NCBI GenBank assembly: GCA_040879645.1
Contig: JBBDJY010000006.1
Coordinates: 94,240 to 158,239 of the forward strand
Reading direction: 5' to 3'
Length of the DNA stretch: 64,000 bases
Source: Minisyncoccota bacterium
GTDB lineage: Bacteria; Patescibacteriota; Minisyncoccia; Phycocordibacterales; XYD1-FULL-46-19
Shown: positions 3,197 to 63,130 of the stretch, piece by piece
Layout: each line of letters opens with the position of its first letter
Position numbering within the stretch: position 1 is the first letter of the stretch
Made by a program: the position numbers and the translations under genes
Notes under the pieces: generated by a model
Told to the model about the DNA's origin: nothing
Database searches by the model: none
The model's input: only the letters and a program-made list of their open reading frames with translations

Positions 3197-3925
3197 ATGA
3201 AAAAACATCTTAATCAAGTTTTACTTTCATTCATTACTGGCTTATTTGGCTGGCATGAAGCGGAAAAAATATTTGAAAAAATCCAAATTGCTTTGACGAT
3301 AGTGATGCAATTGGCTTTTATCGGTGCTTTTATCCTCGGTTTTTTTGAGCGTCAATGGGTGATGATGTTCGTTAGTGTGGTGGCCATGCTCACTATTTGG
3401 TTACCGGTGTTGGTGGCTAATCGTCGCCGAGTCCATATCCCGATAGAGTTTGAATTCTTGTTAACCGCTTTTTTGTACGGGACTTTATTTTTAGGCGAGA
3501 TTCGCGGTTTTTACACTCGGTTTTGGTGGTGGGATGCCATCTTGCACGCCGGCGCCGGTTTGGCCCTCGGTTTCCTCGGTTTTCTTATCCTCTATATTTT
3601 ACATTACAATCAACGGTTGAATTTAAGTCCAGGCTGGTTGGCTTTCTTTTCTTTTACTTTTGCCCTGGCTCTTGGGGCTTTGTGGGAAATCTTTGAGTTT
3701 AACCTGGATTCAAATTTTAGTTTGAATATGCAAAAGAGTTTACGCGACACGATGTGGGATATGGTTATGGATACCGGAGGCGCTTTCATTACTTCCGTCT
3801 CCGGTTATTTGTATTTAAAGTCTAATCGGCGCGGTGTCGGTGTTTTTGAGCATTATCTAATGGCTTATCTTAAAAAGAATTTACCGCCGGTCAAAGCAGG
3901 GGAAACCGGTCGTAATTTTGTATAG
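3197..3925 (+). CDS. Polytopic membrane protein of unknown function.
   Basis: The 242-aa ORF has about six hydrophobic helices. Confidence 0.6.
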   Translation: MKKHLNQVLLSFITGLFGWHEAEKIFEKIQIALTIVMQLAFIGAFILGFFERQWVMMFVSVVAMLTIWLPVLVANRRRVHIPIEFEFLLTAFLYGTLFLGEIRGFYTRFWWWDAILHAGAGLALGFLGFLILYILHYNQRLNLSPGWLAFFSFTFALALGALWEIFEFNLDSNFSLNMQKSLRDTMWDMVMDTGGAFITSVSGYLYLKSNRRGVGVFEHYLMAYLKKNLPPVKAGETGRNFV

Positions 3926-6944: not shown

Positions 6945-8171
6945 TTACTTACCATCAATGGTGGTAATCGCCAGTAGGCGTTTGTATTTTTGGTCGCGGA
7001 AATTGGCGTCCGGGGCACCGGCTTTTAGGCCGAAACAACCGAAAGCGTAAGCAATGTCGGCGATAAAAGTGTCGGTTGTTTCGCCACTCCGGTGACTGGC
7101 AATGGTTTTAATGCCGGCGGTATGAGCCAGGTTAATGGTATTAATGGTTTCGGTCAGGGTACCGATTTGATTGGGTTTAATGATTAAGGAGTTGATGCTG
7201 TCGGCCTCAATCGCTTGTTGTAAGCGGTCTTCTTTAGTGACGGTTAAATCATCACCAATAATTAAGGCATTAAATAAGTGTTTCTTTAAATTAGCAAAAG
7301 CAGTAAAGTCTTCTTCGGCAAACGGGTCTTCCAAACCAAAGAGGGAATATTGACGGAAAATATTTTGATACCAACGACTTAATTGTTCGGTCGTAAAAGT
7401 TTGATCGGCCAGTTGGTATTGACCGTCTCGGTAAAAGGAATTAGCGGCGGCGTCCAAACCGAATTTAACTCGGTCCCGGTCGGTGACGGCTTCAGTTAAT
7501 AATTCCAAGGGTAATTCGGGATCCGGATCATTAATGGCCAAGCCACCCTCATCGCCTTGGGTGAAGTCGCTTGGCGCGAAGCGTTTAGCCACCAATGTTT
7601 CCAAGTGAGCGAAGGTTTGCCGGCCAATGGCCAAGGCTTGGCGAATATCGTTGGTTTGGGGAATAACTTGATACTCTTGGATGGCACTGCCGTAAGGAGC
7701 ATGGGCGCCGCCATTGATTAAGTTCATAAATAAATGTGGTGGGGGAGCGGTCTGGTTTTGAGGAGATAATGGTTTGAGATATTGGAATAATTCTTGATTG
7801 TTTTCGCTGGCGGCGGCCCGGGCAATGGCAATACTGGCGCCAATCATCGCATTGCCACCGAGGCGACTTTTATTCTCCGTCCCGTCGGCATCAATCATCA
7901 ATTGGTCAAGTTTGTCTTGTTCGGATACTTCTTGGCCAACCAGTAAATCGGCAATCTCTTTCAAACCGGCTAAGGCTTCCGGTAAAGGTAAAGCCAGGGC
8001 TTCGCGGGCACCGGTTGAGGCGCCGGCCGGGACGAAACAATAACCCTCGGCCAAAGTGTCGGTTTTGACGGTGACCGCCAGTGTTGGTTTTTGTCGCGAA
8101 TCAAGGATTTCTTGGCCGGTGATGGAAGTGATTTTAGACATATTATTTTTCGTTAGCTTTGGGATATTCAA
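6945..8171 (-). CDS. eno: Enolase. An alternative start at 8141 (MSKITSI...) would abut the stop of the upstream gene.
   Basis: SHRSGETTDTFIADIAYA and ILDSRQKPTLAVTV are typical enolase motifs. Confidence 0.9.
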   Translation of the reverse strand: MNIPKLTKNNMSKITSITGQEILDSRQKPTLAVTVKTDTLAEGYCFVPAGASTGAREALALPLPEALAGLKEIADLLVGQEVSEQDKLDQLMIDADGTENKSRLGGNAMIGASIAIARAAASENNQELFQYLKPLSPQNQTAPPPHLFMNLINGGAHAPYGSAIQEYQVIPQTNDIRQALAIGRQTFAHLETLVAKRFAPSDFTQGDEGGLAINDPDPELPLELLTEAVTDRDRVKFGLDAAANSFYRDGQYQLADQTFTTEQLSRWYQNIFRQYSLFGLEDPFAEEDFTAFANLKKHLFNALIIGDDLTVTKEDRLQQAIEADSINSLIIKPNQIGTLTETINTINLAHTAGIKTIASHRSGETTDTFIADIAYAFGCFGLKAGAPDANFRDQKYKRLLAITTIDGK

Positions 8172-28919: not shown

Positions 28920-29204
28920 TTACTTATCTTTTTTGACGACATTGGCCACTTTATAGACTCGCTTATTACCGTCAAAACGCATTTTTTTCTTGGTGGTGAA
29001 TTTTACCAAGCCGGGTTCTCGAGTATAGAGAGTGTGGTCGCGACCGACACTGACATTAACTCCCGGTAAGATTTTGGTCCCACGCTGGCGAACGATAATC
29101 GCTCCGGCCTTGGCTTCCTGGCCGTCATAAAGTTTAGTGCCAAGATATTTAGGATTGGAATCTCTTAAGTTTTTAGCGGATCCACCCGCTTTACGATGTG
29201 CCAT
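28920..29204 (-). CDS. rpmA: 50S ribosomal protein L27.
   Basis: [22 protein letters not shown]...IIVRQRGTK...GRDHTLY. Confidence 0.9.
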
Positions 29205-29917
29205 AAGGAAATACTTACTGTTAAATTTATTATTGCCAGTATAGTGGAGATTGACAAAAAAATCAAGGCCTACCCCGGTAGGCGAGGGGAGAGGGCGTCC
29301 GGCTTAAAGCCCCCTACCCCCTTTCACTTAATTTTGAGGCCGATTCTAAGATTCGGTGATTTAGTCGGAATTTACCACCGGTATCTGGACCTGTTGTTAA
29401 GGATAAAAAAGTAAAATTTTTAGCTTTTATTTAAAATTTACCAAAATTACACGGTGAAAATTTTGACCGGTTAAGGGTTGGATTTATCAAGTAAATCAGC
29501 TAATCAAAATCAGCTAAATAGGACTCCTAATTAATCATTGGCAATAAAGGGTGACATTGCACCAAGAAGGGCCTCAGAGAGGAAAATAGAGGTACTAGGG
29601 TACCACTCGATTGACTAACCGAGGCCCGTTGGTCGCTACCGGTGAGCGACTTTGCGGACCGGCTTCAATTAAAAGGAGAGAGTCGGATCGTTTATATTAT
29701 AATGTCGCATAATATACATTTTGCGCGGTATTAATCTAAAACCCACTCCCCGGCCGATAATTTATTTTTTCCAACCCGATTCGCCGGTCTCTCTTTTTAT
29801 TACTTTTTCTTTTGTTTCTCCCATGCTCCCTTCTCCGCTCCGTCTTAAGATAGTTTTTTATCAATTGGCTTGTTTAAAAATAAAAAATATCCACTTCTCC
29901 ACCGGAATATTTTTTAG

Positions 29918-29947
29918 TTGACAGAATTTGATATAATTAGTAGTATT
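29918..29947 (+). promoter_or_regulatory. Strong sigma70-like promoter (TTGACA, 17-nt spacer, TAGTAT; a perfect TATAAT also lies at 29932-29937) driving the small RNA.
   Basis: agTTGACAgaatttgatataattagTAGTATtaggggg. Confidence 0.55.
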
Positions 29948-29953
29948 AGGGGG

Positions 29954-30118
29954 TGCAGAGTTCGGTCCCATCCCTCTTCTCGGACGAGGGTGCAATCCGC
30001 CACGGGATAAACTGTCCTCTATGGATGGTAAAGAAACCAGCCGATAGGTCAGAGTTCACCGGACTCTGCACGCCAATCCTCTCCCCTGCGCTTACAAGTT
30101 GCCGGGGAGTTTTTTTAT
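29954..30118 (+). ncRNA. Unclassified small structured RNA of about 120 nt plus an intrinsic terminator. Its architecture is riboswitch-like, or it is a standalone sRNA.
   Basis: A 13-bp closing helix pairs GUGCAGAGUUCGG (29954-29966) with CCGGACUCUGCAC (30060-30072). Internal hairpins are present, plus an alternative local hairpin that re-uses the 3' strand. The terminator ctcccc...ggggag + UUUUUUU lies at 30082-30117. No ORF is present. Confidence 0.5.
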
Positions 30119-30293
30119 ACAAAAAATATTTAGGGCGGTTTTTAAGCTCACCAGATTCCCTCCCCATTCTTGACGAATAAAAATAATAGTGTTAGTAATT
30201 TATTAGGAAGAACGTTAAAAACTTGGGTCTGTCTGCCGTAGGCAGGCCCGCTGGCAAAAATCGCGACTTTTTGTCGCCGAAGAGGAGACTACT

Positions 30294-30893
30294 ATGAGTG
30301 ATATTACTCTCGATGTCGGCCTCGCTTACAAGCTTAAGCAGGCACTATCTCGCAACAGTATTCCCGACGTTGCCGACCTTGATTGGTTGGCGACGGGCGA
30401 TAACATCGCCAAGATGCGTCGGGTGCGACTCGGCCACGCCGAGATCACCGACCCGGAGCACGTCATCGACTGCGATGATGCCGATCCGTTTATTCTGAAC
30501 AACTGGAAGTTCGAGGAACACCGCAAGGGCGGCGCGTTCAAGTGGAACGCCGCCGACGTGGCGCTTCACCTCGACAAGGGGCAACAGAACGGCAAGTGGA
30601 TCGAGGGCAACAAGCTCCGCAAGGAGCTGGCAGACAAAACCGTCTTGAACGCCAATGTCCTCGACTACCTGCTTGCCCATCCACACCTCATTCCCGAGGA
30701 ATGGAAGGGAAAGATGGTCTTCTTTTGGGGTACGATCTACCGCGACCGGTTCGGCGACCTCTACGTCCGTTACCTCCACTGGCTCGGCGACAGGTGGCGC
30801 TGGAACACCGGCTGGCTTGGCGACGTTTGGTACGACTACAACCCCGCCGCGATTTCCGCCGGTCTGCCGACCGATAGGCTTGATTATCGGTAG
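30294..30893 (+). CDS. Hypothetical protein with a Trp-rich C-terminus, in a high-GC, foreign-looking gene.
   Basis: 199-aa ORF at about 60% GC against a background of about 45%. Many overlapping alternate-frame ORFs on both strands are typical GC-rich artefacts. A terminator follows at 30998-31019. Confidence 0.55.
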   Translation: MSDITLDVGLAYKLKQALSRNSIPDVADLDWLATGDNIAKMRRVRLGHAEITDPEHVIDCDDADPFILNNWKFEEHRKGGAFKWNAADVALHLDKGQQNGKWIEGNKLRKELADKTVLNANVLDYLLAHPHLIPEEWKGKMVFFWGTIYRDRFGDLYVRYLHWLGDRWRWNTGWLGDVWYDYNPAAISAGLPTDRLDYR

Positions 30894-30997
30894 TCATTAT
30901 CGGCCGATTGAACTTGGCCCGACATCATTTTGGTGTTGGGCTATTTTTTTGTCGATGTTTAATATAAAAAGAGTCGGGGTGATTTGCAAACTAAAAA

Positions 30998-31019
30998 AGC
31001 CCCCAAGCGGGGCTTTTTT
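30998..31019. terminator. Bidirectional terminator.
   Basis: aaaaaagcccccaagcggggctttttta. Confidence 0.75.
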
Positions 31020-31053
31020 AGTAGGGATCTCATTCAAACGAGTTGAGACGAGA

Positions 31054-31527
31054 TCAAGCGTCTAAAGCGATTTTTTTACTCCAACACGGTCGGCTGGCGT
31101 TCCAGTGTCTGGTCCCTTCATTTTCAAGTAACCAGAGAGCGTAACCAACATTACCTTCTAGGGTGTAGATATCGAAACCTAATTCAGCGCTTTTGTCTTG
31201 ATGGAATGTTTCGTTGATTTGGAAGAGCCCGACATCTTTCGGATTTACCAGACCGCGCAAGGGCTGTCCGGTCCGCTCGTCATATTGACGGTCGGTGCTT
31301 TCACAAAAAGCGATTGAAGTGGTCAGACGGGCGTCTAAGCCGCGTCTCAAGCTCTCCAACTCAACATATTCCGAGACAGTTAGTTCGGAAACTATGGCTG
31401 TTTGGGTTTCATCTAAGTTGCTATCGGGCGTTGGTCCGATCGCGACCGTGGGGGTAAAATTCGCAAAGGTTATGAGGCTTGCAAAGCCTATTTGGACGAT
31501 ACGTAAAATAAGCTGGCAATAAAAAAA
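31054..31527 (-). CDS. Lytic transglycosylase-like (SLT/Rpf-type lysozyme-fold) protein. The open frame extends to a stop at 31528 with no ATG/GTG/TTG before a TTG at 31359.
   Basis: IAFCESTDRQ...GLFQINETFH is an SLT-type motif. The upstream in-frame translation ...ILRIVQIGFASLITFANFTPTVAIGPTPDS looks like a signal peptide plus linker. Confidence 0.5.
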   Translation of the reverse strand, partial: FFYCQLILRIVQIGFASLITFANFTPTVAIGPTPDSNLDETQTAIVSELTVSEYVELESLRRGLDARLTTSIAFCESTDRQYDERTGQPLRGLVNPKDVGLFQINETFHQDKSAELGFDIYTLEGNVGYALWLLENEGTRHWNASRPCWSKKIALDA

Positions 31528-40248: not shown

Positions 40249-40315
40249 ATCACTTTATTATACCGTTTTTACTGATAAAAAAAAGCTCCGCTGATAGTAA
40301 TCAACGGAAACTTAA

Positions 40316-40403
40316 GTGGGGCCGGATGAACCGACAGAAAGGAGGTTCTCTGATTCCCGAGATAGGCCCGGAAATCAATCGTTTATGAGACTCATCCGGC
40401 CCC
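40316..40403. other. 88-nt element closed by a perfect 12-bp inverted repeat (GGGGCCGGATGA...TCATCCGGCCCC), lying between aspS and scpA.
   Basis: Seen directly. The interior contains GAAAGGAGG / CCTCCTTTC and CCCGGAAA. Confidence 0.4.
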
Positions 40404-40465
40404 GAAAAAATAGCGTGATTCAATTTTTTATCTAGATTGATTATATAACGCTAAACTTAACAGTG

Positions 40466-41899
40466 TCAATTGTTTTTATTTTGTTTTGGCGATTTGATTT
40501 GAAGGTGTAATTCGGCTAATTGCTCGGCGGTTAATTCTTTTGGTGCTTTCATCACGGCCGTGCCCCCGCCACGGGTCATCGGAAAGGCTTGAACTTCGCG
40601 CAATTCGGTCGCGCCGGTTAAATTCATCAGACTGCGATCAACGCCGACCGCGATGCCACCATGAGGCGGAACGCCGAAACTAAAGGCCTCCAGCATATGA
40701 CCGATTCGCTCGGCGGTTTCTTCCTCACTGTAACCCATCACTTTATAAGTAGCGGCCAAGATTTCCGGCCGATGGGCGCGGATACTGCCACCGGCCGATT
40801 CAAAACCGTTACAAACCAAGTCGTATTGAGTGGTTAAAATCTTTTCAATATTTTCGCCTTTAAGCAACCAGTCCAAATGTTCGGTCTTGGGCATCGAAAA
40901 GGGATTGTGGGTAAAAGTCCACTTGCCATTATCGGTTTTTTCAAAAAAAGGAAAATCAATCACCCAGGCATAGGCCAAAATACCGGCTTCTTTATCTTCT
41001 TTTGTCCGCAGATCAAATTTATCCGCTCCATATTTAGCCATTGATTCGGCATAAGTAAGGCGTGGGAAGGGTTTTTCTTTAATGATGAGACCCATCTTTT
41101 CAACGGCGGTGGTAATCATCTCTTCAACTGTTTGCAAAACATCTTCTTGGTTGACAAAAGACATTTCCAAGTCAATTTGCGTATGTTCAAAACCCCGATC
41201 GGCTCGTAAGTCTTCGTCACGAATCGCCCGGGCCAGTTGGAAATAGCGTTCAAATCCCCCGGCCATTAAAAGTTGTTTGTATTGTTGAGGTGATTGAGGC
41301 AGAGCATAAAATTTTCCCGGTTGCAGGCGGGACGGGACGACAAAATCCCGTGAACCTTCCGGTGTTGATTCGGTTAAAAGCGGAGTTTCAATCTCAACGA
41401 AGTCATTGGCGTAAAGGTAATCACGGCAATAACGGACAAAATCACTGCGCCGACGGATATTTTTTTGCATCCGGTCGGTGCGTAAATCCAAATAGCGGTA
41501 CTTTAAGCGAACGGCTTCATCAATATTTGCACTATCGGCATCAACGGCAAAAGGTGGGGTCTTGGATTGGTTTAAAACCGAAATAGCGGTAATCTCTAAT
41601 TCCAAATTACCGTTTAATTCGTCGGCTTTAACCATCTTTTCCGGTCGCTTATTAACTTGTCCGGTTATTTCCACCACCCACTCGGAACGTAATTCGCTTG
41701 CCGCTTCGTGGGCCTCGCTATGATTCGGTAAAGCGACCATCTGTACTCGGCCGCTTTCGTCGCGTAAGTCAAGAAAAATCAACTTGCCGTGATCTCGCCG
41801 GCCGTGAATAAAGCCGGCCACTTTTACTTCGTTGCCGATCTGATTTTCCAATTCACTGATTTTTATTCGTTTGGACATAGGTAATTGTTTTTTTATCAC
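40466..41899 (-). CDS. aspS: Aspartyl-tRNA synthetase, a short form without the GAD insertion (archaeal/eukaryal-like length).
   Basis: 477 aa, an OB-fold N-terminus and class II motifs (FRDE, GGSIR, GLDR). Confidence 0.85.
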   Translation of the reverse strand: MIKKQLPMSKRIKISELENQIGNEVKVAGFIHGRRDHGKLIFLDLRDESGRVQMVALPNHSEAHEAASELRSEWVVEITGQVNKRPEKMVKADELNGNLELEITAISVLNQSKTPPFAVDADSANIDEAVRLKYRYLDLRTDRMQKNIRRRSDFVRYCRDYLYANDFVEIETPLLTESTPEGSRDFVVPSRLQPGKFYALPQSPQQYKQLLMAGGFERYFQLARAIRDEDLRADRGFEHTQIDLEMSFVNQEDVLQTVEEMITTAVEKMGLIIKEKPFPRLTYAESMAKYGADKFDLRTKEDKEAGILAYAWVIDFPFFEKTDNGKWTFTHNPFSMPKTEHLDWLLKGENIEKILTTQYDLVCNGFESAGGSIRAHRPEILAATYKVMGYSEEETAERIGHMLEAFSFGVPPHGGIAVGVDRSLMNLTGATELREVQAFPMTRGGGTAVMKAPKELTAEQLAELHLQIKSPKQNKNN

Positions 41900-45849: not shown

Positions 45850-46737
45850 ATGAAGATCCACTCTGTTGGAATCGGGCTTATGCTCGTTGTTTTGCTCTTG
45901 GCCTACTCGGCCGAGGCGCAACGCAATCGCAACAAACTGCTGGGTGACGGTCGGGAGGTGGCCGCTCAGACTGGGGCCAACCCCCAGTCACAAGTGGAGC
46001 TCATCTCCATCCCCGCGGACCCGTCGAAACCGACCTTCTACGTCACCGTGGAAGAGCCGTTTGTGATGGCGGCCCAAGACATCACTTCCGGCGGTGGCAT
46101 CACGCCTGGCGCGCCGGAACAGTCTTACTTCATCTCCAACTGGTTAATCGCCACTCAGATGCACCATCCTCAAGCGATTAGCCCATCGGCCCCACTGAGC
46201 GAAAAGCTGGGTTATGGCATGGCCGCCCAGCTCACCAGTGTCTTGACCCGGATCGGCAATCTGGCCGTGATTGATTACCCCACTTATCGCGATAATCCGG
46301 GTCGTTATCCTGAGATTTTCGTCATTCGGGGTACAGTCACCGAGTTCACCGAGACCGATGGTCTGGATGAACAGAAGAAGGGTTTCGATACCAAAATCGC
46401 TGGCCGGGTACTCTCGATTATTGGCGGCGGACGCGGATTGGGCCAGGCTGGCAATCTCATCTCCAGCGCTAATGTTGGCCAGAAGAAGATCATCACCAAC
46501 CGAACCGGTGTGGTCGGCTTGGATATCCAGCTAATTCAAACGGCGACCGGCCGGGTGATGCGCTCGACCCCTTGCCAGGGAACCTTCACCACCCAAAGCG
46601 CCACGGAGATCCAACATGGTTTAGGCTTCAGCGAAAGCCAGTCCGAATACCAAGCTTCGGCTTTAAACCAAGCCAGTCGGGCGGCTTTGAACCAAGCCGC
46701 GACCGAAATTTGGCAAGCTCTGGCAACCACGCGATGA
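45850..46737 (+). CDS. Secreted protein of unknown function, possibly a CsgG-like periplasmic assembly component (weak resemblance), in a GC-rich islet.
   Basis: Signal peptide MKIHSVGIGLMLVVLLLAYSAEA, about 58% GC. AGGAGG lies upstream. Confidence 0.55.
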   Translation: MKIHSVGIGLMLVVLLLAYSAEAQRNRNKLLGDGREVAAQTGANPQSQVELISIPADPSKPTFYVTVEEPFVMAAQDITSGGGITPGAPEQSYFISNWLIATQMHHPQAISPSAPLSEKLGYGMAAQLTSVLTRIGNLAVIDYPTYRDNPGRYPEIFVIRGTVTEFTETDGLDEQKKGFDTKIAGRVLSIIGGGRGLGQAGNLISSANVGQKKIITNRTGVVGLDIQLIQTATGRVMRSTPCQGTFTTQSATEIQHGLGFSESQSEYQASALNQASRAALNQAATEIWQALATTR

Positions 46738-46874: not shown

Positions 46875-47258
46875 TCAATTGACCAAAGCGGTCTCTGGCG
46901 TTGACAATTCGTCTGACAATTCGAGACTCTTCGCGTCGAAGATGGTCCACTCCCTAGTGGTCCCGGCTTCGAGATAAACGTCGAAACGGGCGCTCCAGTC
47001 GCCAGTGAAAGACACCACCCGGAGGTCATACCAACCCGGCGGCAATCCGCGGACATCGTAGTAGGAGTTTGGCGCTAGCGTCGCCGGTAACCGATTTGTG
47101 CCCCAAGTCGTGGAAGAAGAAGAGACGACGTTGACCTCTACGAGGTAATGCGAGCTGATGTTTTTGACCCGGAGGGTCGCCGTATAGGGATCTAGTGGAC
47201 AACCGGAGAGACCAACCAGACAGAGAACAATCACCACTAAAAACAAGTATCGAGACAT
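46875..47258 (-). CDS. Small lipoprotein-like secreted protein. The start is the ATG after the cassette's Shine-Dalgarno; the listed ORF starts at a GTG inside that Shine-Dalgarno.
   Basis: MSRYLFLVVIVLCLVGLSGC (lipobox-like), about 55% GC. Confidence 0.55.
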   Translation of the reverse strand: MSRYLFLVVIVLCLVGLSGCPLDPYTATLRVKNISSHYLVEVNVVSSSSTTWGTNRLPATLAPNSYYDVRGLPPGWYDLRVVSFTGDWSARFDVYLEAGTTREWTIFDAKSLELSDELSTPETALVN

Positions 47259-47322
47259 CAGATTCACCTCCTTTCGAAGACCAAGTTTTCTCCGGAATCT
47301 GCTCCGGAAGATTATCTACCCG
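47259..47322 (-). promoter_or_regulatory. Conserved 5' leader cassette, copy A: a -10-like TAGATAAT, a 7-bp hairpin, then AAAACTTGGTCTTCGAAAGGAGGTGA.
   Basis: Shared with the cassettes at 51393-51465 and 61068-61135. Confidence 0.6.
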
Positions 47323-51592: not shown

Positions 51593-53269
51593 TTACTCTC
51601 CTGCTTGCTTTATTTCCTCTCGATTAGCCGAGGCGGCATCAGGTAATTCAAGGGTAAAAGTGGAGCCCTGGTCCTTGCCGGGCGAATTGGCGATAATTTG
51701 TCCTTGATGGGCTTCAATGATTTGTTTGGCGACAAACATTCCCAGACCGGTACCTTTGACATTTATCTTCCCCTCATCATCAGCCCGAACAAATTTTTGA
51801 AACAGTTTTTCAATTTCCTCCGCTTCCAAACCGACACCGGTGTCGGTGACATCAATCCTCACCTTTCCATCACCGGACTTAACCGCTACCTTTACCGAAC
51901 CGGCCGGCGTGTACTTAATCGCATTGTCGATAACATTGGAAATTACCTGACCGATTTTACCACTGTCGCCATAAACCAAGTACTCACCCTTGTCAGCCGT
52001 AAAGGATAATTTGATTTTCTGATTCTTGGCTGTCGCTTCGTATTCTTTAAGAACTTGTTCGGTTAAGTTCTTAAGATCAAATTCAGTCAATTCATATTTC
52101 ATCTTGCCCAATTCAATTCGCGTGATATTAAGAAAATCTTCAATCACCCGGACCAATTTCTGGCTGGATTCAAATACAATATCAACCTTTTCCTTTATTT
52201 TTTTCGGTACTTTTCCAAATGACCCTTCCAAAATCATTGATGAATACCCCTTGATGGCGGTCAACGGTGCCCGCAACTGATGCGAAGCGATAGAAACAAA
52301 TTCGGTCTTTTGTTTGTCCAATTCTTTCAATTTTTCATTAGCCCCAAACAAAGCTTTATTGACCTCTCTTAATTCTCCAGCCAATTTTTCAATGTGCTCT
52401 CTTTGTTTTATTTCCCGACGAACACTACGAATTAAATAAATGCCGAATATAAGTATTGATACAAAAATTAACGAATCCACCGCTCTTTCTATGATAGTGT
52501 TTGATCTAAATATTTGAGAAAAAATTATAATCCACAAAACTATTATAACTGCCTCAGTCACTATTATTTTAATATTAAAAAGTTCATATTTAGTAATTGC
52601 ATAGGCGGTTATCCCCATAAAAATTAGTGCATAAATAGAAATCAGGGGTAAAAATATTCCATTTCCGTAGATTATTATTGGAAGTAAGATTGTCCCAATA
52701 AGCAATAATAGCATCAGTGATATTCCGATTAAAATTAAAATGGATTGATATTGTCTGACTCCACTGTACTCTATTGTTTTTTTAAATAGAAAATATATGG
52801 CCAAGACACTAAACAAGGTAGATATAATCGCAAATGGAATTATTCCTAATCCAGCAATGGGATTTCCGCTATTATCTGTGGTATGGGTAAAGGCATAAGG
52901 AGATATATTTATAATTGCCATTACCGCAGTAAGAAGTAAAATTAAAACAAAATTACGTTGCGACATCATTATTTTATGACTTGGTATTGTATGGGCAAAT
53001 AGAAGGAACAAGGCGCTCATTAATGCCGCGAACATTATGCTAAGACGATGAAAGAAAATAGCTAATGATTCTATTTCTGGTAGTCCGGCTATATATCCTG
53101 ACCATAACCAAAACAATATAAAAATACTTAGCAATGAAAAAATTATATTGGTAGCACTTTTTTTATTACTGTAATAAATAGTAAAAATCAGTACGATTGA
53201 TCCTATCGACACTCCAGCAAGAAAAAATAACTCTAATTCACTTACTATATTAGAAAAAATTTCAATCAT
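51593..53269 (-). CDS. Sensor histidine kinase with a 7-transmembrane N-terminal domain; no response regulator is adjacent.
   Basis: HisKA region VSIASHQLRAPLTAIKGY, HATPase_c region DTGVGLEAEE...GTGLGMFVAKQII, 558 aa. Confidence 0.85.
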   Translation of the reverse strand: MIEIFSNIVSELELFFLAGVSIGSIVLIFTIYYSNKKSATNIIFSLLSIFILFWLWSGYIAGLPEIESLAIFFHRLSIMFAALMSALFLLFAHTIPSHKIMMSQRNFVLILLLTAVMAIINISPYAFTHTTDNSGNPIAGLGIIPFAIISTLFSVLAIYFLFKKTIEYSGVRQYQSILILIGISLMLLLLIGTILLPIIIYGNGIFLPLISIYALIFMGITAYAITKYELFNIKIIVTEAVIIVLWIIIFSQIFRSNTIIERAVDSLIFVSILIFGIYLIRSVRREIKQREHIEKLAGELREVNKALFGANEKLKELDKQKTEFVSIASHQLRAPLTAIKGYSSMILEGSFGKVPKKIKEKVDIVFESSQKLVRVIEDFLNITRIELGKMKYELTEFDLKNLTEQVLKEYEATAKNQKIKLSFTADKGEYLVYGDSGKIGQVISNVIDNAIKYTPAGSVKVAVKSGDGKVRIDVTDTGVGLEAEEIEKLFQKFVRADDEGKINVKGTGLGMFVAKQIIEAHQGQIIANSPGKDQGSTFTLELPDAASANREEIKQAGE

Positions 53270-54330
53270 CTGTAATTTATTTTAGGTAATAACTTTGTCG
53301 ATTTAGCTGAAGGCTCTCCGTCATATCCTATGCGCAGGATCGTTGTGATAATCCCATTTAATCTACAAATTGACTCTATCCCATGATAAGCCGTCTTAAT
53401 TTCATTATTGTCTTTTTCCGTAAATACCTGTGAAGCGGTTTTTTCTTCAACGGCTTGGTGAAAGAATAATAACCCACTGTTTAATTGTACTGACAAATTA
53501 TTTTTTGTTGCCGCTAACCAAATTGATTGGACTTGTCTCCCAACGTCAATAAAAGATTTACTATCTTTTAACTTAGCGCTAATAATACACAGCCCGGCAC
53601 AAGCGGAATGTGTCTCCTTATTTTCTGCGGCAATTTTTTTAGCGATGCCTAGTTTAAGCGCCAAAGACATAATTGGCCAATATTTAAGTAATCGCATCAA
53701 TAGTCTTTTGCCGAAGCTTAATTCCAGTGTATGGATTAATAGTCCCCCACCTCTTAACTTTTCTTCATTTTTATTCCAAACCAATTCTTTAAAAAAAAGT
53801 CTGTTTAAAAATTTATTTTCAAACATTATTCTTTCACCGACTGATAAATATTTAGCGATTTCGTCTATACTCGTTCGATTATAGATAAAATTAACATTTA
53901 CTTGATTATTAAAATTTATATATTTTTTTAAATCTGAAACAACGTTTTCCGTGATTGCCTCTTTGGCGTAAGGTTTTCGATTAGAGGCCCGCTTATGCAA
54001 ATAACTGTATAAAGGGCTTAATTTAACCGAGTCATCGTCTATTAACTCTATCGAAGCCGTTAATTTGGGCTCATTTTGATTAGGAAATATTTTTACAATA
54101 GCTTTTAAGTTGTGCTTGGTCGAAGCAATGGCAATATTTTCAATCAAGGCCCCATGAGCGATATAGGTTCCTCGATTTCGGACGTTTAGAACCGCGTGAT
54201 CTTTTTCCGGCTGAGCAAATATATTAATGGTGTTATCTTTTATTTCAAAGTACCAAGGCTGAGAATTTCCTCCCGATGGAGCATCGTAACTATCAGCCAG
54301 TATTTTTTCTATTATCACCTGATTAACCAT
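53266..54330 (-). CDS. Nitroreductase-family flavoprotein, enlarged (354 aa; tandem or SagB-like dehydrogenase type).
   Basis: PSGGNSQPWYF signature near the N-terminus. The length exceeds simple nitroreductases of about 200 aa. Confidence 0.6.
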   Translation of the reverse strand: MVNQVIIEKILADSYDAPSGGNSQPWYFEIKDNTINIFAQPEKDHAVLNVRNRGTYIAHGALIENIAIASTKHNLKAIVKIFPNQNEPKLTASIELIDDDSVKLSPLYSYLHKRASNRKPYAKEAITENVVSDLKKYINFNNQVNVNFIYNRTSIDEIAKYLSVGERIMFENKFLNRLFFKELVWNKNEEKLRGGGLLIHTLELSFGKRLLMRLLKYWPIMSLALKLGIAKKIAAENKETHSACAGLCIISAKLKDSKSFIDVGRQVQSIWLAATKNNLSVQLNSGLLFFHQAVEEKTASQVFTEKDNNEIKTAYHGIESICRLNGIITTILRIGYDGEPSAKSTKLLPKINYR

Positions 54331-54337
54331 AGTTTTA

Positions 54338-55378
54338 TTATATCAAATTTTCATTAAAACCACTCTCTTTAATCCCGGTCGCCTTTATTATTTTAGCCAC
54401 CCCTTTTTGCCAAGTGGCAATCGGGGTGATTTTAAGTCGAGGAATATCCGGCACTTGTTCATCAACCATATATCTAAATTCTCCGGCGGTCAGAAGAGAT
54501 CCAATTAGTAATCCTTCGGCGGTTAACAGGTTGGAAAATTTGGTTAAATCCTCGATGTTTTCTATCTTTTCAGTTTTCAGATAGTGTTGTAAAGTTTTTG
54601 TGGTTATTTGCCCGGAGACATACAACTTTTTTGTAAGCTCTATCAATTTGTCCATATCTAACCAGTAGGTTGGGAATTTATAGGAATAAAAAGATCGGTC
54701 AACATTTAATTTTTTATTGGGAGGCAGGCCTAAAGTTTCTTCGGCGGCAATAAAAGGCATGGCGGTTACTTTCCCATTTTTATTCAGGGCAATCACTTTA
54801 TTTTGGATATCACCCCTGACGATAGCGGTAACATATTCAAAGGTATTGATGTCTTCAGAATAATCAGCTATAAATTGCGCCTGCATCAGGGCGAAACATA
54901 TAGCGGTAAATTTATGTTTAGTTGAGTTTTTTTTGTTTATAAAACACGGATGAACCCCACACATTCTGGAGTCAGAATACACTTTAGACCATAGATTCTT
55001 ATTTGACCAATTCATTTTGTCGCACAGTAACTTAGGTACCGGCTGATTTTTATATTTATACAATTCTATTTCTCCAATCCCGGTAAATAATCCATCCCCG
55101 GGAACCATGCGCACACTCAACCATTCTTCGGTTTCTTTACCGTACCGGGCCCGGGCAAGATAGATAACAGCCTTATCGTCATATTTATCAAATAATTCCC
55201 GTGCCCCATATTTTTTGTATGAACCTCTGGCCAAGGCCAGGATTTTATACAGGCTTTTATCTAACCACTTTTTGTTATTTAAGTCTTTGGCACGGTAAAT
55301 CTCAAATTCTGCTTCAGCTGTAGAATAAACAGCTAAGGGTTTGGGTAATTTAAGCAGTGTCTCTGATATATTATTCAT
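54338..55378 (-). CDS. Hypothetical protein (346 aa) with a possible acyltransferase-like fold (very weak LuxI/FeeM/FemX-like impression).
   Basis: No clear motif was found. It is tightly packed inside the operon. Confidence 0.4.
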   Translation of the reverse strand: MNNISETLLKLPKPLAVYSTAEAEFEIYRAKDLNNKKWLDKSLYKILALARGSYKKYGARELFDKYDDKAVIYLARARYGKETEEWLSVRMVPGDGLFTGIGEIELYKYKNQPVPKLLCDKMNWSNKNLWSKVYSDSRMCGVHPCFINKKNSTKHKFTAICFALMQAQFIADYSEDINTFEYVTAIVRGDIQNKVIALNKNGKVTAMPFIAAEETLGLPPNKKLNVDRSFYSYKFPTYWLDMDKLIELTKKLYVSGQITTKTLQHYLKTEKIENIEDLTKFSNLLTAEGLLIGSLLTAGEFRYMVDEQVPDIPRLKITPIATWQKGVAKIIKATGIKESGFNENLI

Positions 55379-55383
55379 TGTAA

Positions 55384-56505
55384 TTAAATGTCCAATAGAT
55401 TGTTTAATTGCTTAAGGGTTTTTTGCCTTTGTTTTATGGCGTCTTTTTTTTGAAAATCAGAATCTAAAGTTGAAATCGGACTAAAGACATATTTGCCAGA
55501 CTTAAGATGATCAGTTGTTAAAATCATTTTGACAGTCATTGCTAATATTGATCCGGACATTACCGCCGCAATCCCTAATTGAGGTACATGGTTAATCGTT
55601 TGACCAATTGCTATGAGTGACTTTTGTAGATCTTCTTCCATAAATTCTGTTCCGATAATTTTAGAAGAAAGTTTACTCCAGGCTTTCGGGTCTTTATGGC
55701 GCAATAATGCCAGCCCGATATTTTTTGGTAAACTTACTCGGCCGTGGAAAATCGGGTATTTAGGGTCTCTATCATATCTTTCGATGTCTAAGATAATACC
55801 ATTGCCATTATCGGTCGCCATTAAAACGGGGATTTTCTTTTGTCTTGCTTTTTGCCTTATCCTCACTTTCATCATCAAATTATCCATCTCATCAATTAAG
55901 ATGTCGACGGCCGATAAAAAATTATCAATATTTTTCTCAGTTACTCCTTGGCGGAATATCTTTATGTCAGCGTAGGGGTTATTTTGATAGATATATTCGG
56001 CTGTTCTTTCTGCTTTATTCTGGCCAATATCGAGAAAATCAAAATGGAGCCGGTTTAGGTTGGTGCCAGAAATCTTGTCTCCATCCGCGATTTTCAAGTG
56101 TTTGGCAATACCGGACATCGAAAGAACCATGGCGGCATGACTACCAACGCTTAATCCGGCAATGGCAATTGTCGCATTATATAATTTATCTTGAGCAATA
56201 CTTGATACGACTTCTTTATTGCGAGCGGTTCTTAATTCCTGATGAAGGTCTTCCGGTAAATAGGAGACTAAAGTTTTGTTCCAAGGAAAATAAAACCAAG
56301 TTCCAGGCTTTGTTTGTTTTTTATTGTTTGGAAGATTTTTTATGAATTGTTTAAATTTGGGATCGTTTTTCGATTTTACTTTCTTTAGCGGATTTCTGAC
56401 TTGATAAAGCTCATAGATCAAATCGTCATATTTATCAATTTTTTTAGATATTTCATGAGAATTCTCAAATTTTTTTAGATTTAAAACTCGAATTGGTTTT
56501 TTCAT
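55384..56505 (-). CDS. ThiF/MoeB/E1-like adenylyltransferase with an N-terminal extension of about 105 aa.
   Basis: Rossmann/E1 signature IAIAGLSVGSHAAMVL...IADGDKISGTNLNRL, 373 aa. Confidence 0.7.
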   Translation of the reverse strand: MKKPIRVLNLKKFENSHEISKKIDKYDDLIYELYQVRNPLKKVKSKNDPKFKQFIKNLPNNKKQTKPGTWFYFPWNKTLVSYLPEDLHQELRTARNKEVVSSIAQDKLYNATIAIAGLSVGSHAAMVLSMSGIAKHLKIADGDKISGTNLNRLHFDFLDIGQNKAERTAEYIYQNNPYADIKIFRQGVTEKNIDNFLSAVDILIDEMDNLMMKVRIRQKARQKKIPVLMATDNGNGIILDIERYDRDPKYPIFHGRVSLPKNIGLALLRHKDPKAWSKLSSKIIGTEFMEEDLQKSLIAIGQTINHVPQLGIAAVMSGSILAMTVKMILTTDHLKSGKYVFSPISTLDSDFQKKDAIKQRQKTLKQLNNLLDI

Positions 56506-56515
56506 GGATCCTTAA

Positions 56516-57625
56516 CTACTTTCTTAAATCGGCAATATATTTGTTTTTATAAGAACTTGTTTTGGATGCATCTATGTTTTTTTGGAAAATAATTTTTTTA
56601 TTTTTTAAAAAATTGAGAGTTTCGTTTATTTCGGCTTCTTTCTTCTTTACTTTATTATCAATAAAAATTTCAACCAGATCTCTATCATTGTTGGTTTTAA
56701 TATAAACCATAAATTGGTCGGTAAATTTAAGTAACGAATCTATAATTTTTGTTTTAGATGTCAGAATACCCTGGACTTTAATTAAATCATCACTCCGGTT
56801 TATTATTTCAAATTCCTTCAACGATCCATTCCGGTTATATTTTACATTATCCAAAATATCCCCCGTTTTATATCGGATTATCGGTGTGGCCAGATTATAT
56901 AAATCAGTGACAACTAAATGTTTTAAGTTTTTAATTTCTATCGCTTCAACATATATACCATTGCTTATGACGGTTATTTTTTGAGGATCATCTTTTTTTG
57001 ATACCCCAATCGCCGGGCACTCGGTTAGGCCAAAGTGATTAATGACTTCAATCCCATACCTTTTAAATGTATCGGTATAGCTGTCTAAAAGTCTCTCGCC
57101 GGCGACAATTATCTTTTTGGGGAAATATCTTGATTTTTTTTCTTGTGCCAACAAGTTAAGTAAACTGATGGCATAACTGGGGACCGAAAGCCAAACATTT
57201 GGCCTGATCTTTTTTATTGCTTCTATCATCTTATCTTTAGGATAAGTGTTAGGGGCGCCTAGCGGTATTACCGAAATGTCCATTTTTTGGCAGGCCTTTT
57301 CGTACATACTCCCCGGCACATAATTACCATAGGCAAAAAGGTTTAAGACGATATCGTCTTTTGCTACTCCTGATTTTTTAAGCGATTTAATGGCCCGACT
57401 GATAAAGTGATGAACCGCTTGTTTTGAGTAAAAAACATATAAAGGGAGCCCGGTTGACCCGCTGGTAACCCGTAACTCTAAAAAAGATTTAGGCGTCTTA
57501 AATTTTTTAATTACGTTTTTATTACTGACTGGTACCTCGCTCCAGGTTTTTATTTTTGAGCCCCGATGAAAATTACGTAATATGTCTTGTTGTCGTATTT
57601 TTAGCGATGATTTGTTGTTTTTCAT
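56516..57625 (-). CDS. Adenylate-forming enzyme of the PaaK / coenzyme F390 synthetase / CapK-like family (ANL superfamily).
   Basis: VTSGSTGLPLYVFYS (A3-like), HFGLTECP (A5-like) and YKTGDIL (A8-like). Confidence 0.65.
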   Translation of the reverse strand: MKNNKSSLKIRQQDILRNFHRGSKIKTWSEVPVSNKNVIKKFKTPKSFLELRVTSGSTGLPLYVFYSKQAVHHFISRAIKSLKKSGVAKDDIVLNLFAYGNYVPGSMYEKACQKMDISVIPLGAPNTYPKDKMIEAIKKIRPNVWLSVPSYAISLLNLLAQEKKSRYFPKKIIVAGERLLDSYTDTFKRYGIEVINHFGLTECPAIGVSKKDDPQKITVISNGIYVEAIEIKNLKHLVVTDLYNLATPIIRYKTGDILDNVKYNRNGSLKEFEIINRSDDLIKVQGILTSKTKIIDSLLKFTDQFMVYIKTNNDRDLVEIFIDNKVKKKEAEINETLNFLKNKKIIFQKNIDASKTSSYKNKYIADLRK

Positions 57626-57636
57626 AGAGGAAGAAT

Positions 57637-58044
57637 TTAAACTACATAAAATTTTTCTTCAACCTCGGCCCTTATCTCGCCTCTTATTTTATATTTTCGA
57701 GAATAATTTGTTTTTGAGATAAGAATTCTTTTTAAATTTTTATTTTGAAAAATTTTACCAAATGGTTCATTGGGATTATGAGTGGCCCAATCATTAACAA
57801 ATTTGTTTTTTTTAAGTTTGTTAGTGGCTTGGCATAGGATTTTATCATTTTTTAAAAAGGCAATTTCTCGAAAGATAAAATCTTCGGTTATTTTTTGTTT
57901 TAATAGTTTGAACTCGACATCAGGAATATTTTTTTCAATATATAAAGTTGTTGATAAGGTAATATCATTTAATAATTCGAAAAACCACGGTGCCTCTTTT
58001 TTATTCATTCCAGCAAAAAAGCGATGCAAAAAAATAGCTTTCAT
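57637..58044 (-). CDS. Hypothetical 135-aa protein.
   Basis: ORF in the operon. It is preceded by a 19-aa micro-ORF (58063-58122, MEKYLIKKSYLDMTLLGEK) with an AAAGGTGG Shine-Dalgarno. Confidence 0.4.
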   Translation of the reverse strand: MKAIFLHRFFAGMNKKEAPWFFELLNDITLSTTLYIEKNIPDVEFKLLKQKITEDFIFREIAFLKNDKILCQATNKLKKNKFVNDWATHNPNEPFGKIFQNKNLKRILISKTNYSRKYKIRGEIRAEVEEKFYVV

Positions 58045-58247
58045 TATTTTATAGATTAAATTTTACTTTTCGCCAAGTAAAGTCATATCCAAATAGGACT
58101 TTTTAATCAAGTATTTTTCCATTCTTTCCACCTTTTAATAATATGACATTTTTTATCATACCACGGTTTAATTTATAAAGAAAGATTGATCAATTAAACT
58201 TAAATCCAAAAACTGTTTTTTATTTAACAATTAAAACCGAGATATCA

Positions 58248-59399
58248 TCAGGTCTCTTTTCCGATAGCTTGACTGATGTTGTGATATCCGTCTTGTTGTA
58301 ATAATTTAACCAAACCTTGGTTAATCTGGCTAATTGTTTGTGGTCCGTTAAAAATCATACCGGTAATCATTTGCAAAAGAGAAGCACCGGCTTTTATTTT
58401 TTTATAGGCATCAGTGGCATTAAATATCCCACCGACTCCGATGATGATAAATCTATCCCCGGCTTTTTTATAGAGATAAGAGATTTGCTGATTGGCTAAA
58501 TCTTCGACGGCTTTTCCCGATAGCCCGCCATTTTCCGCTGGCAATGTTTCCTTAATTTTTGCTTGGATGTTTTTATTGGTCTTATCTTTAACTAAATTGG
58601 AACAAATAAAACCACTGATGTTATACTCTTTCCCCAATTCAATAATTTCATCTAATTTGTTTGCCGGCAAATTATCCGGTGGCAATTTTATAAAAATCGG
58701 TTTTGACCAAGTGGCTATCGGAGAATGTTCTGTGGCCAGGGCCGTAAGTAGTTTTTTGAGAGAAGATGGATTGGCAAAAGGTTCTCCGCCAAAAGTATTC
58801 GGGCAACTGATATTGATAGTATAATAATCGCCAACCTTGGCTGCCAAAAAATAACGGTAAGCCGACAGATAATCGGCAACGCCGGCATCGGTCTCGATTG
58901 TCTTTTTGCTATTGGTTTTGGCTAAACTAACACCGACCGGAAAAGCAAATTTTTTGACCTTAAGGCGATGGCTGATAACTTTTGCCCCGTCATTTTTAAG
59001 GCCATAGTAAACCAGTAAACTTTTAGATTTTGGTAAACGCCAAAGACGAGGTTTGGGATTTCCTTCGCAAGGTTCACCGGTGACCGAACCACCTTCCATA
59101 AAACCAAAACCAACGAAGGGTAAAATATCTGCCAATTCTATATTTTTATCAAAACCGGCCGATAAGCCAACCGGGTTTTTAAATTTGATCCCCAAAATAT
59201 TTTGTTCCAGTGTCGGATGTGAATATCCGAAACATAATCTCACTATGAATCTGGTGATTTGGAATTGGCCCAGAAATTTACCAATTTCATTAAATCTATC
59301 GTGAACCTCTTCCGGATTATGTCGAAATAAAATTGGCTTTAACAAAAAACGATACTTCCAGGCAATTATAGTATTTCTAAATTTTATTAATGTTTCCAT
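58248..59399 (-). CDS. pyrD: Dihydroorotate dehydrogenase, class 2 (quinone-type) fold.
   Basis: FKNPVGLSAGFDKN, GFGFMEGGSVTGEPCEGNPKPRLWRL, INISCPNT, GGLSGKA, IIGVGGI...AGASLLQ align with the recalled E. coli PyrD. Confidence 0.85.
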   Translation of the reverse strand: METLIKFRNTIIAWKYRFLLKPILFRHNPEEVHDRFNEIGKFLGQFQITRFIVRLCFGYSHPTLEQNILGIKFKNPVGLSAGFDKNIELADILPFVGFGFMEGGSVTGEPCEGNPKPRLWRLPKSKSLLVYYGLKNDGAKVISHRLKVKKFAFPVGVSLAKTNSKKTIETDAGVADYLSAYRYFLAAKVGDYYTINISCPNTFGGEPFANPSSLKKLLTALATEHSPIATWSKPIFIKLPPDNLPANKLDEIIELGKEYNISGFICSNLVKDKTNKNIQAKIKETLPAENGGLSGKAVEDLANQQISYLYKKAGDRFIIIGVGGIFNATDAYKKIKAGASLLQMITGMIFNGPQTISQINQGLVKLLQQDGYHNISQAIGKET

Positions 59400-59520
59400 C
59401 TATTGGTGCACCTTATTAATTTGAACTGTAGCACATTTTAAAAAGAAAAGTAAAATATTAAAATTAGTCTCCCGAGGCCAAAAAACCACTCCATTTTTAT
59501 GGTTCTTAAGACAAGTCAAA

Positions 59521-59545
59521 AAAACGCCTGTTTAGGCGAGGATTT
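59521..59545 (-). terminator. Small hairpin plus T-run after the GreA-C-like gene.
   Basis: cgcctaaacaggcg followed by ttttttt on the minus strand. Confidence 0.5.
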
Positions 59546-59783
59546 TTTCAACTTTGATTACCACTTGGCGATCTCGAATCACTCCTGGTTTTTCTTCACC
59601 CGCCTGCATTTCAAGCAGAAGTGAAGCCAAGGGAGCATCGCTCGCAATTTTACCTTCGGCGATATCGGTTTGGCCAAGGCCGACAATGGTCCAAGTTTGG
59701 GACTGACCGTTAACCGTGACGGCTATTCGGTTGCCAATCTGGACTTTTGGCGCTTTTTGTTCATGGATTTCTTTGGTTTCCAT
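59532..59783 (-). CDS. GreA/GreB C-terminal (FKBP-like) domain-only protein of 84 aa. The start was moved to METKEIH; the listed TTG start lies inside the operator palindrome.
   Basis: RIAVTVNGQSQTWTIVG..ADIAEGKIASDAPLASLLLEMQAGEE resembles the GreA C-terminal domain. Confidence 0.45.
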   Translation of the reverse strand: METKEIHEQKAPKVQIGNRIAVTVNGQSQTWTIVGLGQTDIAEGKIASDAPLASLLLEMQAGEEKPGVIRDRQVVIKVEKILA

Positions 59784-59807
59784 TAAGGTGATAATAGGCC
59801 CCCGGCC

Positions 59808-59915
59808 AATTGTTGGCAATAGCCGACAAAATGACTTTGATTTTAGTCAAAAATATCCTTGGTTTGCAATCTTTGCCGGCTAAGAGAGAGAATTTCACCG
59901 GTTTTGTTGGGGCTG
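59808..59915. repeat. Repeated regulatory module of about 110 bp, copy D. It contains the palindrome TTGTTGGCAATAGCCGACAA and a TTGACT box.
   Basis: 64 nt are identical to 61147-61209, followed by a similar tail (..ccgrttttgttgggg..). Confidence 0.8.
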
Positions 59916-59936
59916 GATGACAAATCAAGACAATTT

Positions 59937-60485
59937 TTATTTTATATATAGAAAATGTAAAATATGCCAATTTTTGATCTTGTCCTGCCTGGTTAATCCC
60001 TGACCAATATCTTCTGAAGAAAAATAAGGCGGAATGGATAACAATGAGAGTGATTCATCCCGCGAATAAAATGACATTTTTCCTCTTCTTTCCGTCACCC
60101 AGCCATCATTAGGGCCAAATAAAGTAAAATAAAGAAAACCGGATTCGTCCAATGACCGGAAGGCCGTTTTAATTATTCGCGCAATCTCTTGTTTATCGGT
60201 GATAAAAGGTAAAACATTAGCCATTATGATGCCGTCATATTTCTGATTAAAAACAAAATCCTGAATGTTTTTATTTTCAATTCGCCAATAACCATCCTCT
60301 GCTATTTCTTTAAAATTTTTTTGGGCTTGAATCAGCGCTCCCTCGTCTACATCTACTAAAGTTACCTGATATCCGTATTTTAGAAAATCCATTGCTTGCC
60401 GACCATCACCGCCACCCAGGTCAATTAATTGACCGTCAGCTTTTAATAACTTCTCATTTTTTAATTTTTTAAATAAAGGAATCAT
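59937..60485 (-). CDS. Class I SAM-dependent methyltransferase (TehB-like).
   Basis: LIDLGGGDGRQA (motif I), VTLVDVDE, 182 aa. Confidence 0.7.
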   Translation of the reverse strand: MIPLFKKLKNEKLLKADGQLIDLGGGDGRQAMDFLKYGYQVTLVDVDEGALIQAQKNFKEIAEDGYWRIENKNIQDFVFNQKYDGIIMANVLPFITDKQEIARIIKTAFRSLDESGFLYFTLFGPNDGWVTERRGKMSFYSRDESLSLLSIPPYFSSEDIGQGLTRQDKIKNWHILHFLYIK

Positions 60486-60587
60486 AAAATTATTTTAATA
60501 TTTATATTAATTTTAAAACATTAACAAAAAAATCGCGCAATTACCACAGTAACTGCGCGATCCAAGTCTTGGTCACAGAATAGGTAA

Positions 60588-61067: not shown

Positions 61068-61135
61068 ATAATCACCTCCTTTCAAAGACCAAGTTTTTCT
61101 TTGGACCTATTTCCAAAGAATCTAATATCACCTTA
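61068..61135 (-). promoter_or_regulatory. Conserved 5' leader cassette, copy C: TATTAGAT, a 7-bp hairpin CTTTGGA/TCCAAAG, then AAAAACTTGGTCTTTGAAAGGAGGTGA.
   Basis: Seen directly. Confidence 0.6.
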
Positions 61136-61146
61136 CTGAAAAAAAG

Positions 61147-63115: not shown

Positions 63116-63130
63116 TGATAAGATATATTT

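Follow-up and report, generated by a model that had tools for sequence, protein, structure and literature searches.

A candidate stand-alone small non-coding RNA gene beside a dif-like site in a Paceibacterota chromosome

Introduction

The 64-kb stretch of DNA analysed here (the window) carries at positions 29918-30118 a promoter, a compact RNA fold and a terminator, in that order on the + strand and next to a GC-rich gene. The locus raises the question of whether it represents a gene for a free-standing RNA, the regulatory leader of the gene downstream, a housekeeping RNA in disguise or debris of mobile DNA. A first-pass annotation, made from the letters alone, had described a discrete structured non-coding unit bounded by a promoter and a terminator, and our promoter, fold and terminator analyses confirm this description. 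As regards its nature, our leading, although tentative, reading is that of a stand-alone, lineage-specific gene for a small non-coding RNA of about 165 nt.

Genomic context of the locus

The neighbours of the locus are core genes, encoding an S41 peptidase, L9, L27, an M23 peptidase, GltX and CysS, and further core genes code for DnaB, RecR, MurG, FtsW, MraY, ScpA and ScpB. The product of ORF199, the gene downstream of the candidate RNA, matches a hypothetical protein from a Candidatus Paceibacterota MAG at 100% identity. The core-gene neighbours and the ORF199 match together indicate that the window derives from the chromosome of a candidate-phyla-radiation (CPR) bacterium. Its G+C content is about 44%, with the exception of positions 52000-64000 (G+C 0.30-0.39, versus about 0.44 elsewhere), where a run of - strand genes is found and which may represent a compositionally distinct island.

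A Shine-Dalgarno (SD)-like motif is present in only 6/43 ATG-started ORFs. A TATAAT box can be observed 7-10 nt before the ATG of many ORFs (e.g. 11765, 13023, 31958(-), 40248(-), 54330(-) and 61317), which suggests that the mRNAs are mostly leaderless. Both GC-rich genes without a Pfam family, namely ORF199 and the gene at 45850-46737, have strong SDs, consistent with a foreign origin. The earlier placement of the RNA on a small islet beside a GC-rich foreign gene thus holds, in that the DNA is lineage-specific and ORF199 is both GC-rich and SD-led in a genome where this is the exception.

Promoter and terminator

Four features make up the unit:

29918 to 29946, + strand: sigma-70-type promoter TTGACA (29918-29923), 17 nt, TAGTAT (29941-29946), 10/12 matches
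29950 to 30074, + strand: structured core, a four-way junction of cloverleaf-like topology, the same in the MFE and centroid structures, z = -4.09
30075 to 30080, + strand: linker AAUCCU between the closing helix P1 and the terminator, single-stranded by its unpaired probabilities
30081 to 30116, + strand: intrinsic terminator, hairpin CUCCCC..GGGGAG (30081-30109) followed by T7 (30110-30116), about -14.7 kcal/mol

The promoter is the one previously proposed, and represents the top + strand site within 29-31 kb. In the whole window, fifteen + strand sites show at least 10/12 matches, of which only that at 29918-29946 is followed by a terminator 60-300 nt downstream. The overlapping TATAAT that had also been pointed out is present at 29932-29937, but is located only 8 nt from the -35 hexamer and is irrelevant as a -10 element. 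Judged by the promoter spacing, transcription would start at G29952/29953, that is, at the first bases of the closing helix. The intrinsic terminator had likewise been recognized correctly, and its hairpin is present at every co-transcriptional step, in all transcript lengths of at least 160 nt.

The rarity of this arrangement was assessed with a home-made joint scan of the whole 64-kb window for promoters with at least 10/12 matches and a hairpin/T-run terminator 60-300 nt downstream. Two such pairs were identified, the RNA at 29918-30116 and a - strand unit at 40469-40284, against 0.1 per strand expected from dinucleotide shuffles, which places the RNA unit beyond chance.

Coding potential

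The earlier statement that no ORF overlaps the RNA is not literally correct, as mechanically derived ORFs of 73 aa (- strand) and 75 aa (+ strand) do so, the former of which was called by the gene caller of one assembly. Neither ORF has a Pfam match, and comparison of both against 5.8 and 1.8 billion proteins revealed no real homologue, the only matches being the same locus and a tandem-repeat artefact. A protein-coding reading was rejected on the grounds that both Pfam matches and credible homologues are absent. These pseudo-ORFs furthermore served as probes for miscalled relatives of the RNA.

Fold of the RNA

The structured core comprises 125 nt of the unit of about 165 nt. The closing helix postulated in the first-pass annotation is recovered in the computed fold as P1, in which 29953-29966 pairs with 30058-30071 (14 bp, including one U-G pair), and which continues past a G.G mismatch by two further pairs to 29950/30074. 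The P1 pair probabilities are ~1, and an inverted-repeat scan describes its arms as 17 nt in length and 88% complementary. The internal stem-loops postulated alongside it correspond to three computed hairpins, H1 (29969-29992), H2 (29995-30008; loop GCCACG) and H3 (30012-30052; loop UAAAGA). The minimum free energy of 29948-30118 is -71.3 kcal/mol (z = -4.09), with 0/200 shuffles equally stable, and the + strand fold is ~7 kcal/mol more stable than that of the - strand.

Positions 30072-80, which include the mismatched G30072, are mostly unpaired (probability at least 0.8) and form the sole long exposed segment of the molecule. The linker AAUCCU begins a C/U-rich stretch, AAUCCUCUCCCC, and may provide an interaction surface.

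Comparison with known RNA classes

No Rfam 15 family matched at the gathering threshold in the whole window. The Rfam/Infernal scan that had been suggested as a check gave no family match even at E<=10, where permissive filters applied to 1.1 kb and to 178 nt returned chance matches only (RT-14: 20 bits; ncS037: 15 bits; NsiR1: 12 bits). None of the RNase P, tmRNA, SRP, 6S, tRNA and riboswitch models reached E = 10 on the 178-nt stretch, and ARAGORN reported nothing on the RNA.

These results bear on the idea that the molecule is a housekeeping RNA in disguise, such as a drastically reduced RNase P RNA, or a tmRNA, SRP, 6S or tRNA-like RNA of a reduced-genome CPR bacterium. Its 5′ and 3′ ends pair as they do in stable RNAs, its GGGG 5′ end, GCCA 3′ end and UUCA-containing hairpin are faintly reminiscent of tRNA and tmRNA, and about 20/30 positions resemble the 3′ region of E. 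coli M1 RNA in the alignment of the first-pass annotation, which we checked by eye. A housekeeping RNA would, however, be expected at the syntenic location in relatives, where it is absent, and the tRNA, tmRNA and tRNA-like options were rejected on the negative ARAGORN and covariance model results.

The resemblance to RNase P merits closer comparison, since it had been raised from the outset for the P4/3′ region. As in bacterial RNase P RNA (RF00010/RF00011), the two ends of the molecule meet in a terminal helix, and a short stretch of the candidate is ~65% identical to the E. coli 3′ region. Bacterial RNase P RNA is, however, ~330-400 nt in length, in contrast to the 125 nt of the candidate, which in addition lacks the partner for the P4 pseudoknot and other conserved regions and is not syntenically conserved. 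A CR-I (GAGGAAAGUCC-like) sequence is absent from 29950-30074, so that the putative CR-V (ACAGAACCCGGCUUA-like) stretch at 30033-30048 has no CR-I/P4 partner and is instead buried in H3, pairing locally as its 3′ half. Furthermore, no RNase P model, whether bacterial A/B, archaeal or type T, matched at E<=10. The resemblance is thus superficial, and we regard a housekeeping RNA as very improbable.

The downstream gene and its leader

The next ORF begins 176 nt beyond the RNA, as had been stated, and is preceded by elements of its own:

30170 to 30198, + strand: ORF199's own promoter TTGACG, 17 nt, TAGTAA, at the family's usual distance from the gene
30216 to 30293, + strand: truncated copy of the ORF199-family leader, model R2 57 bits, E about 1e-10 to 1e-13
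30294 to 30893, + strand: ORF199, GC-rich and SD-led, by its homologue loci the gene of a DGR-type variable (target) protein, here as a solo copy

ORF199 has 1542 homologues, all Patescibacteria-like and sharing 55-79% identity, and the synteny of the window is found in 0/80 of the homologue loci that were fetched. Homologous loci contain a second copy of the final ~123 nt of the gene about 440 nt downstream, with the mismatches located almost exclusively at adenines of this downstream copy (TR; 18/18 in L009, 20/20 in L010, 9/9 in L006 and 18/18 in L034), and the TR is followed by genes for Avd and a YADD reverse transcriptase (RT). Adenine-confined mismatches, Avd and RT together constitute a DGR signature, identifying ORF199 as a DGR variable protein. 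Among the ORF199-family loci, RT is found in 28/81 and Avd in 32/81. Many of the loci are full cassettes comprising target, TR, Avd (on the opposite strand) and RT, with tandem targets in L013 and L033.

No TR, Avd or RT belonging to ORF199 of the window was found within the 64 kb, and its product carries a 10-residue C-terminal extension; the gene is a solo or remote DGR target. Comparison of an ORF199 model against the PDB with Foldseek yielded nothing significant. Strong RNA structure is predicted within the coding region, at 30360-30479 (z = -6.7) and 30600-30719 (z = -5.1) in 120-nt windows. The possibility that the candidate is itself a DGR template repeat RNA was rejected, as an adenine-tolerant scan of both of its strands against the window gave 0 matches.

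Alignment of the upstream regions of the family revealed a conserved promoter and a structured leader of ~125 nt. Model R2, a covariance model built from six of these leaders, matches the + strand directly before the ATG in about 50/81 loci, and an independent MAFFT alignment of 36 leaders shows double compensatory changes in 12/17 predicted pairs of the leader P1 helix. A conserved U-G pair points to a function of the leader as RNA on the + strand. The leader contains a long hairpin that hardly varies (UGCCAUAGCAGAAAG...CUUUCUGCUAUGGCA), a small one with covariation and a GCGAC/GUCGC hairpin, and base pairing is possible between its 5′ GUCU and the AGAC within the ribosome-binding site GGAGACU. 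Full copies are found at L003:3871-4003, L165:388-520 and L002:2173-2304. Rfam 15 holds no corresponding family and returned miRNA-hairpin noise only. In the window, the leader has undergone deletion of the 45-nt P1 hairpin and reduction of P2 to a mini-hairpin. With its own promoter and the family leader at the usual spacing, ORF199 is regulated by its own element.

The candidate is not a diverged copy of this leader. The two lie side by side in one orientation, a long G+C-rich hairpin dominates each of them, and their P1 helices are loosely similar (GUAGCAGA / UCUGCUACGGCAAAC against GUGCAGAG / CUCUGCACGCCAAUC). When model R2 was run on 29200-31100 with filters off, however, the candidate scored at best 0.8 bits, compared to the 57 bits of the true, truncated leader at 30216-30293.

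A further alternative, raised in the first-pass annotation as a riboswitch, is that of a cis-acting leader whose structured domain would respond to a ligand or factor and thereby govern read-through of the terminator into the DGR gene 176 nt downstream. Promoter, structured domain, terminator and ORF do occur in this order on one strand, the progression from promoter through a multi-helix junction closed by P1 to an intrinsic terminator is that of transcription-terminating riboswitches, and an upstream element could conceivably replace the P1 hairpin missing from ORF199's normal leader. The switch itself, however, is not borne out. The alternative hairpin proposed earlier (CAGAGU/ACUCUG; 30050-55/30063-68) exists, but forcing it changes the energy from -56.8 to -42.3 kcal/mol, a cost of 14.5 kcal/mol, and neither conformer shares nucleotides with the terminator. 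The terminator is thus independent of both P1 and the alternative hairpin, and no part of the fold competes with it as an antiterminator would. No known riboswitch model matches, the element is found upstream of 0/80 homologues of the downstream gene, and that gene retains its own promoter and leader. A terminator-controlling riboswitch was thus rejected, and the cis-acting reading as a whole appears improbable.

Search for relatives of the RNA

Both blastn and nhmmer searches for the RNA were negative. A single-sequence covariance model of the candidate (model R1), run over all 165 fetched loci, gave no match, whether in the 80 ORF199 loci (up to 4 kb upstream), the four syntenic or closest loci (L162-L165) or the 80 metagenome L9 loci. 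BLAST against phages and plasmids was likewise negative, and three exact 21-22-mers of the RNA are absent from viral contigs. The only match is a contig from the same strain with 99.9% identity, and the RNA is present as one copy in the 64-kb window.

The first-pass annotation had taken missing conservation in related genomes as evidence against the RNA. It is indeed missing in the syntenic relatives L162 and L163, which are, however, distant, with L9 identities of only 56% and 45%, respectively. The nearest L9 in 5.8 billion proteins is 56% identical, a metagenome search with L9 revealed relatives only at <=42% identity, and no other genome is represented in the 90%-identity clusters to which L27, L9, the S41 peptidase and the 91-aa ORF belong. 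With no homologue of the RNA and so sparsely sampled a lineage, covariation analysis is impossible at present. As such, the novel sRNA that the first-pass annotation had offered as one option stands as the best remaining reading, but draws no support from conservation, with the nearest L9 only 56% identical.

The dif-like site and its neighbourhood

A further feature lies 220 nt upstream of the RNA:

29702 to 29729, - strand: dif-like Xer site ACCGCGCAAAATGTATATTATGCGACAT, 21/28 identical to E. coli dif

This 28-mer is unique in the window and is the best match in the 64 kb to a presumed dif consensus. Its central TGTATA is identical to that of E. coli dif, GGTGCGCATAATGTATATTATGTTAAAT (PMC3025954). 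The cumulative GC skew shows a plateau and turn at 29-36 kb, coincident with the dif-like site, which has moreover been retained in L162 (about 3579-3606) and in L163 (about 7888-7915). We conclude that 29702-29729 is the likely dif site of the chromosome, located at the replication terminus.

In L162 and L163, the two nearest genomes, the gene order S41, L9, L27(-), variable stretch, ORF150(-), ORF91(-) and M23(-) is retained. In the interval between L27 and ORF150, a dif-like island of ~20 nt is the only part common to the window, L162 and L163, with the DNA flanking dif on both sides completely different among the three. To the right of dif, L163 has ~40 nt, the window has the candidate RNA and the DGR target module, and L162, the closest relative, has an unrelated near-perfect hairpin of 24-28 bp (L162:3743-3830; z = -9.4 for 3700-3900), followed by a bidirectional terminator. 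The L162 hairpin was rejected as a positional analogue of the RNA, as it has no promoter and no sequence similarity. To the left of dif, the window lacks the ORF140/129 gene of both relatives. This gene codes for a membrane protein of 129-140 aa that carries a Cys-rich motif, YHLPWC...NCPG, at its C-terminus. In the window, its place between L27 and dif is taken by 490 nt of non-coding DNA, which include a G+C-rich structured segment at 29560-29679 (z = -4.0 and -2.7 on the - and + strands, respectively).

This variability is among the arguments for the main rival of an RNA gene, according to which the segment is a non-functional relic, i.e. debris of mobile or recombined DNA beside dif (a MITE-like palindrome or the remnant of an Xer-exploiting element), whose promoter-RNA-terminator appearance arose by chance from inverted-repeat arms and AT-rich flanks. 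The segment is missing in both syntenic relatives, lies beside the dif-like site in a region that differs fully in three genomes and faces an unrelated, promoterless hairpin at the equivalent position in L162. In formal terms, the arms of P1 make up a 17-nt terminal inverted repeat around 91 nt, and the neighbouring DGR target gene appears decayed, with a truncated leader and no TR or RT. A mobile origin is, however, not favoured by the single copy in 64 kb, and no target-site duplication was seen. A second dif-like junction, the mark of an integrative element exploiting Xer recombination (IMEX), was rejected, as matches to the candidate half-site at 30129-30139 are no more frequent than chance predicts (32 observed versus 32.5 expected); no second full dif-like site was found in the window. 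An IMEX-type origin of the region is nevertheless an attractive idea. Finally, chance would rarely place a 10/12 promoter, a start on the opening base of the helix and a U7 terminator in such exact succession. We deem a relic rather unlikely, although it is to be taken seriously.

A second structured unit in the window

The other pair returned by the joint scan forms a unit of comparable layout:

40280 to 40469, - strand: second promoter-terminator structured unit, TTGACA-17-TATAAT promoter with 12/12 matches, z = -6.7

It has a closing helix (GGGGCCGGAUGAG / UUCAUCCGGCCCC), a 12-bp apical hairpin and a U8 terminator, and matches nothing in Rfam at E<=10. Its large internal loop holds AACCUCCUUUCUG, which resembles the 16S rRNA 3′ tail, and is predicted to form a -25.8 kcal/mol duplex (10 + 6 bp) over the SD and start codon of the ORF at 46875-47267(-). 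The presence of this second unit suggests that sRNA genes of this architecture are a feature of this genome.

Possible mode of action and targets

If the candidate is a stand-alone RNA gene, the near-consensus sigma-70 promoter would start transcription at about 29952, and the first 14-16 nt of the transcript would pair with 30058-30074, closing the compact four-way junction with its three hairpins. The short C/U-rich single strand, running from AAUCCU into CUCCCC, would come next, and the intrinsic terminator would complete the RNA. Since helices would lock its two ends, a stable, trans-acting RNA is to be expected, in which the C/U-rich linker and the hairpin loops may pair with purine-rich (SD-like) mRNA sites; alternatively, the RNA may serve as a protein-binding scaffold. 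Such a gene was probably acquired, or arose, only recently in the hypervariable DNA between dif and the horizontally mobile DGR gene.

Target predictions within the window were largely uninformative. The longest perfect complementarity to the RNA is 12 nt, which is at chance level, whole-RNA target prediction with duplexfold gave no meaningful result, and the comparison of the linker with translation-initiation regions was not specific, with ORF199 unremarkable. Ranking by linker duplex placed obg and an Asp/Asn-tRNA synthetase-like gene (40466-41899) at the top. An anti-SD mode would have few targets, given that only 6/43 genes have an SD motif.

In several respects the candidate resembles stand-alone bacterial sRNAs that are encoded in trans and end in a Rho-independent terminator. 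Like them, it carries a sigma-70 promoter of its own, is 100-200 nt long and closes with a terminal hairpin and U tract; it is likewise intergenic in variable or acquired DNA and exposes a C/U-rich stretch. The RsaE/RoxS sRNAs of the Firmicutes are C/U-rich and target SD sequences. The candidate differs from trans-encoded sRNAs in being without a homologue, conserved seed or identified target, and from seed-type sRNAs in its unusual four-way junction closed by a 16-bp helix. Its host genome is moreover largely SD-less or leaderless.

A variant of the RNA gene reading, to which we give only a small chance, is that this four-way junction with locked ends defines a new class of structured RNA restricted to an almost unsampled Paceibacterota lineage, with a function tied to its neighbourhood. 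It could then be a stable RNA partner or regulator of the orphaned DGR gene, whose regulatory hairpin has been deleted, or the cargo of a dif-targeting mobile module.

Implications

To our knowledge, almost nothing is established about regulatory RNAs in CPR bacteria, and the stand-alone small RNA gene tentatively favoured here would, if verified, provide a useful first example of an sRNA gene in this group. The analysis of its surroundings furthermore locates a putative dif site, and with it the replication terminus, on a chromosome of the Paceibacterota, and presents the DNA adjacent to dif as a hot spot of turnover in this lineage. The gene that had been described as foreign is identified as a member of a widespread CPR family of DGR variable proteins, for which a conserved structured leader RNA was found that shows covariation and has no Rfam entry.
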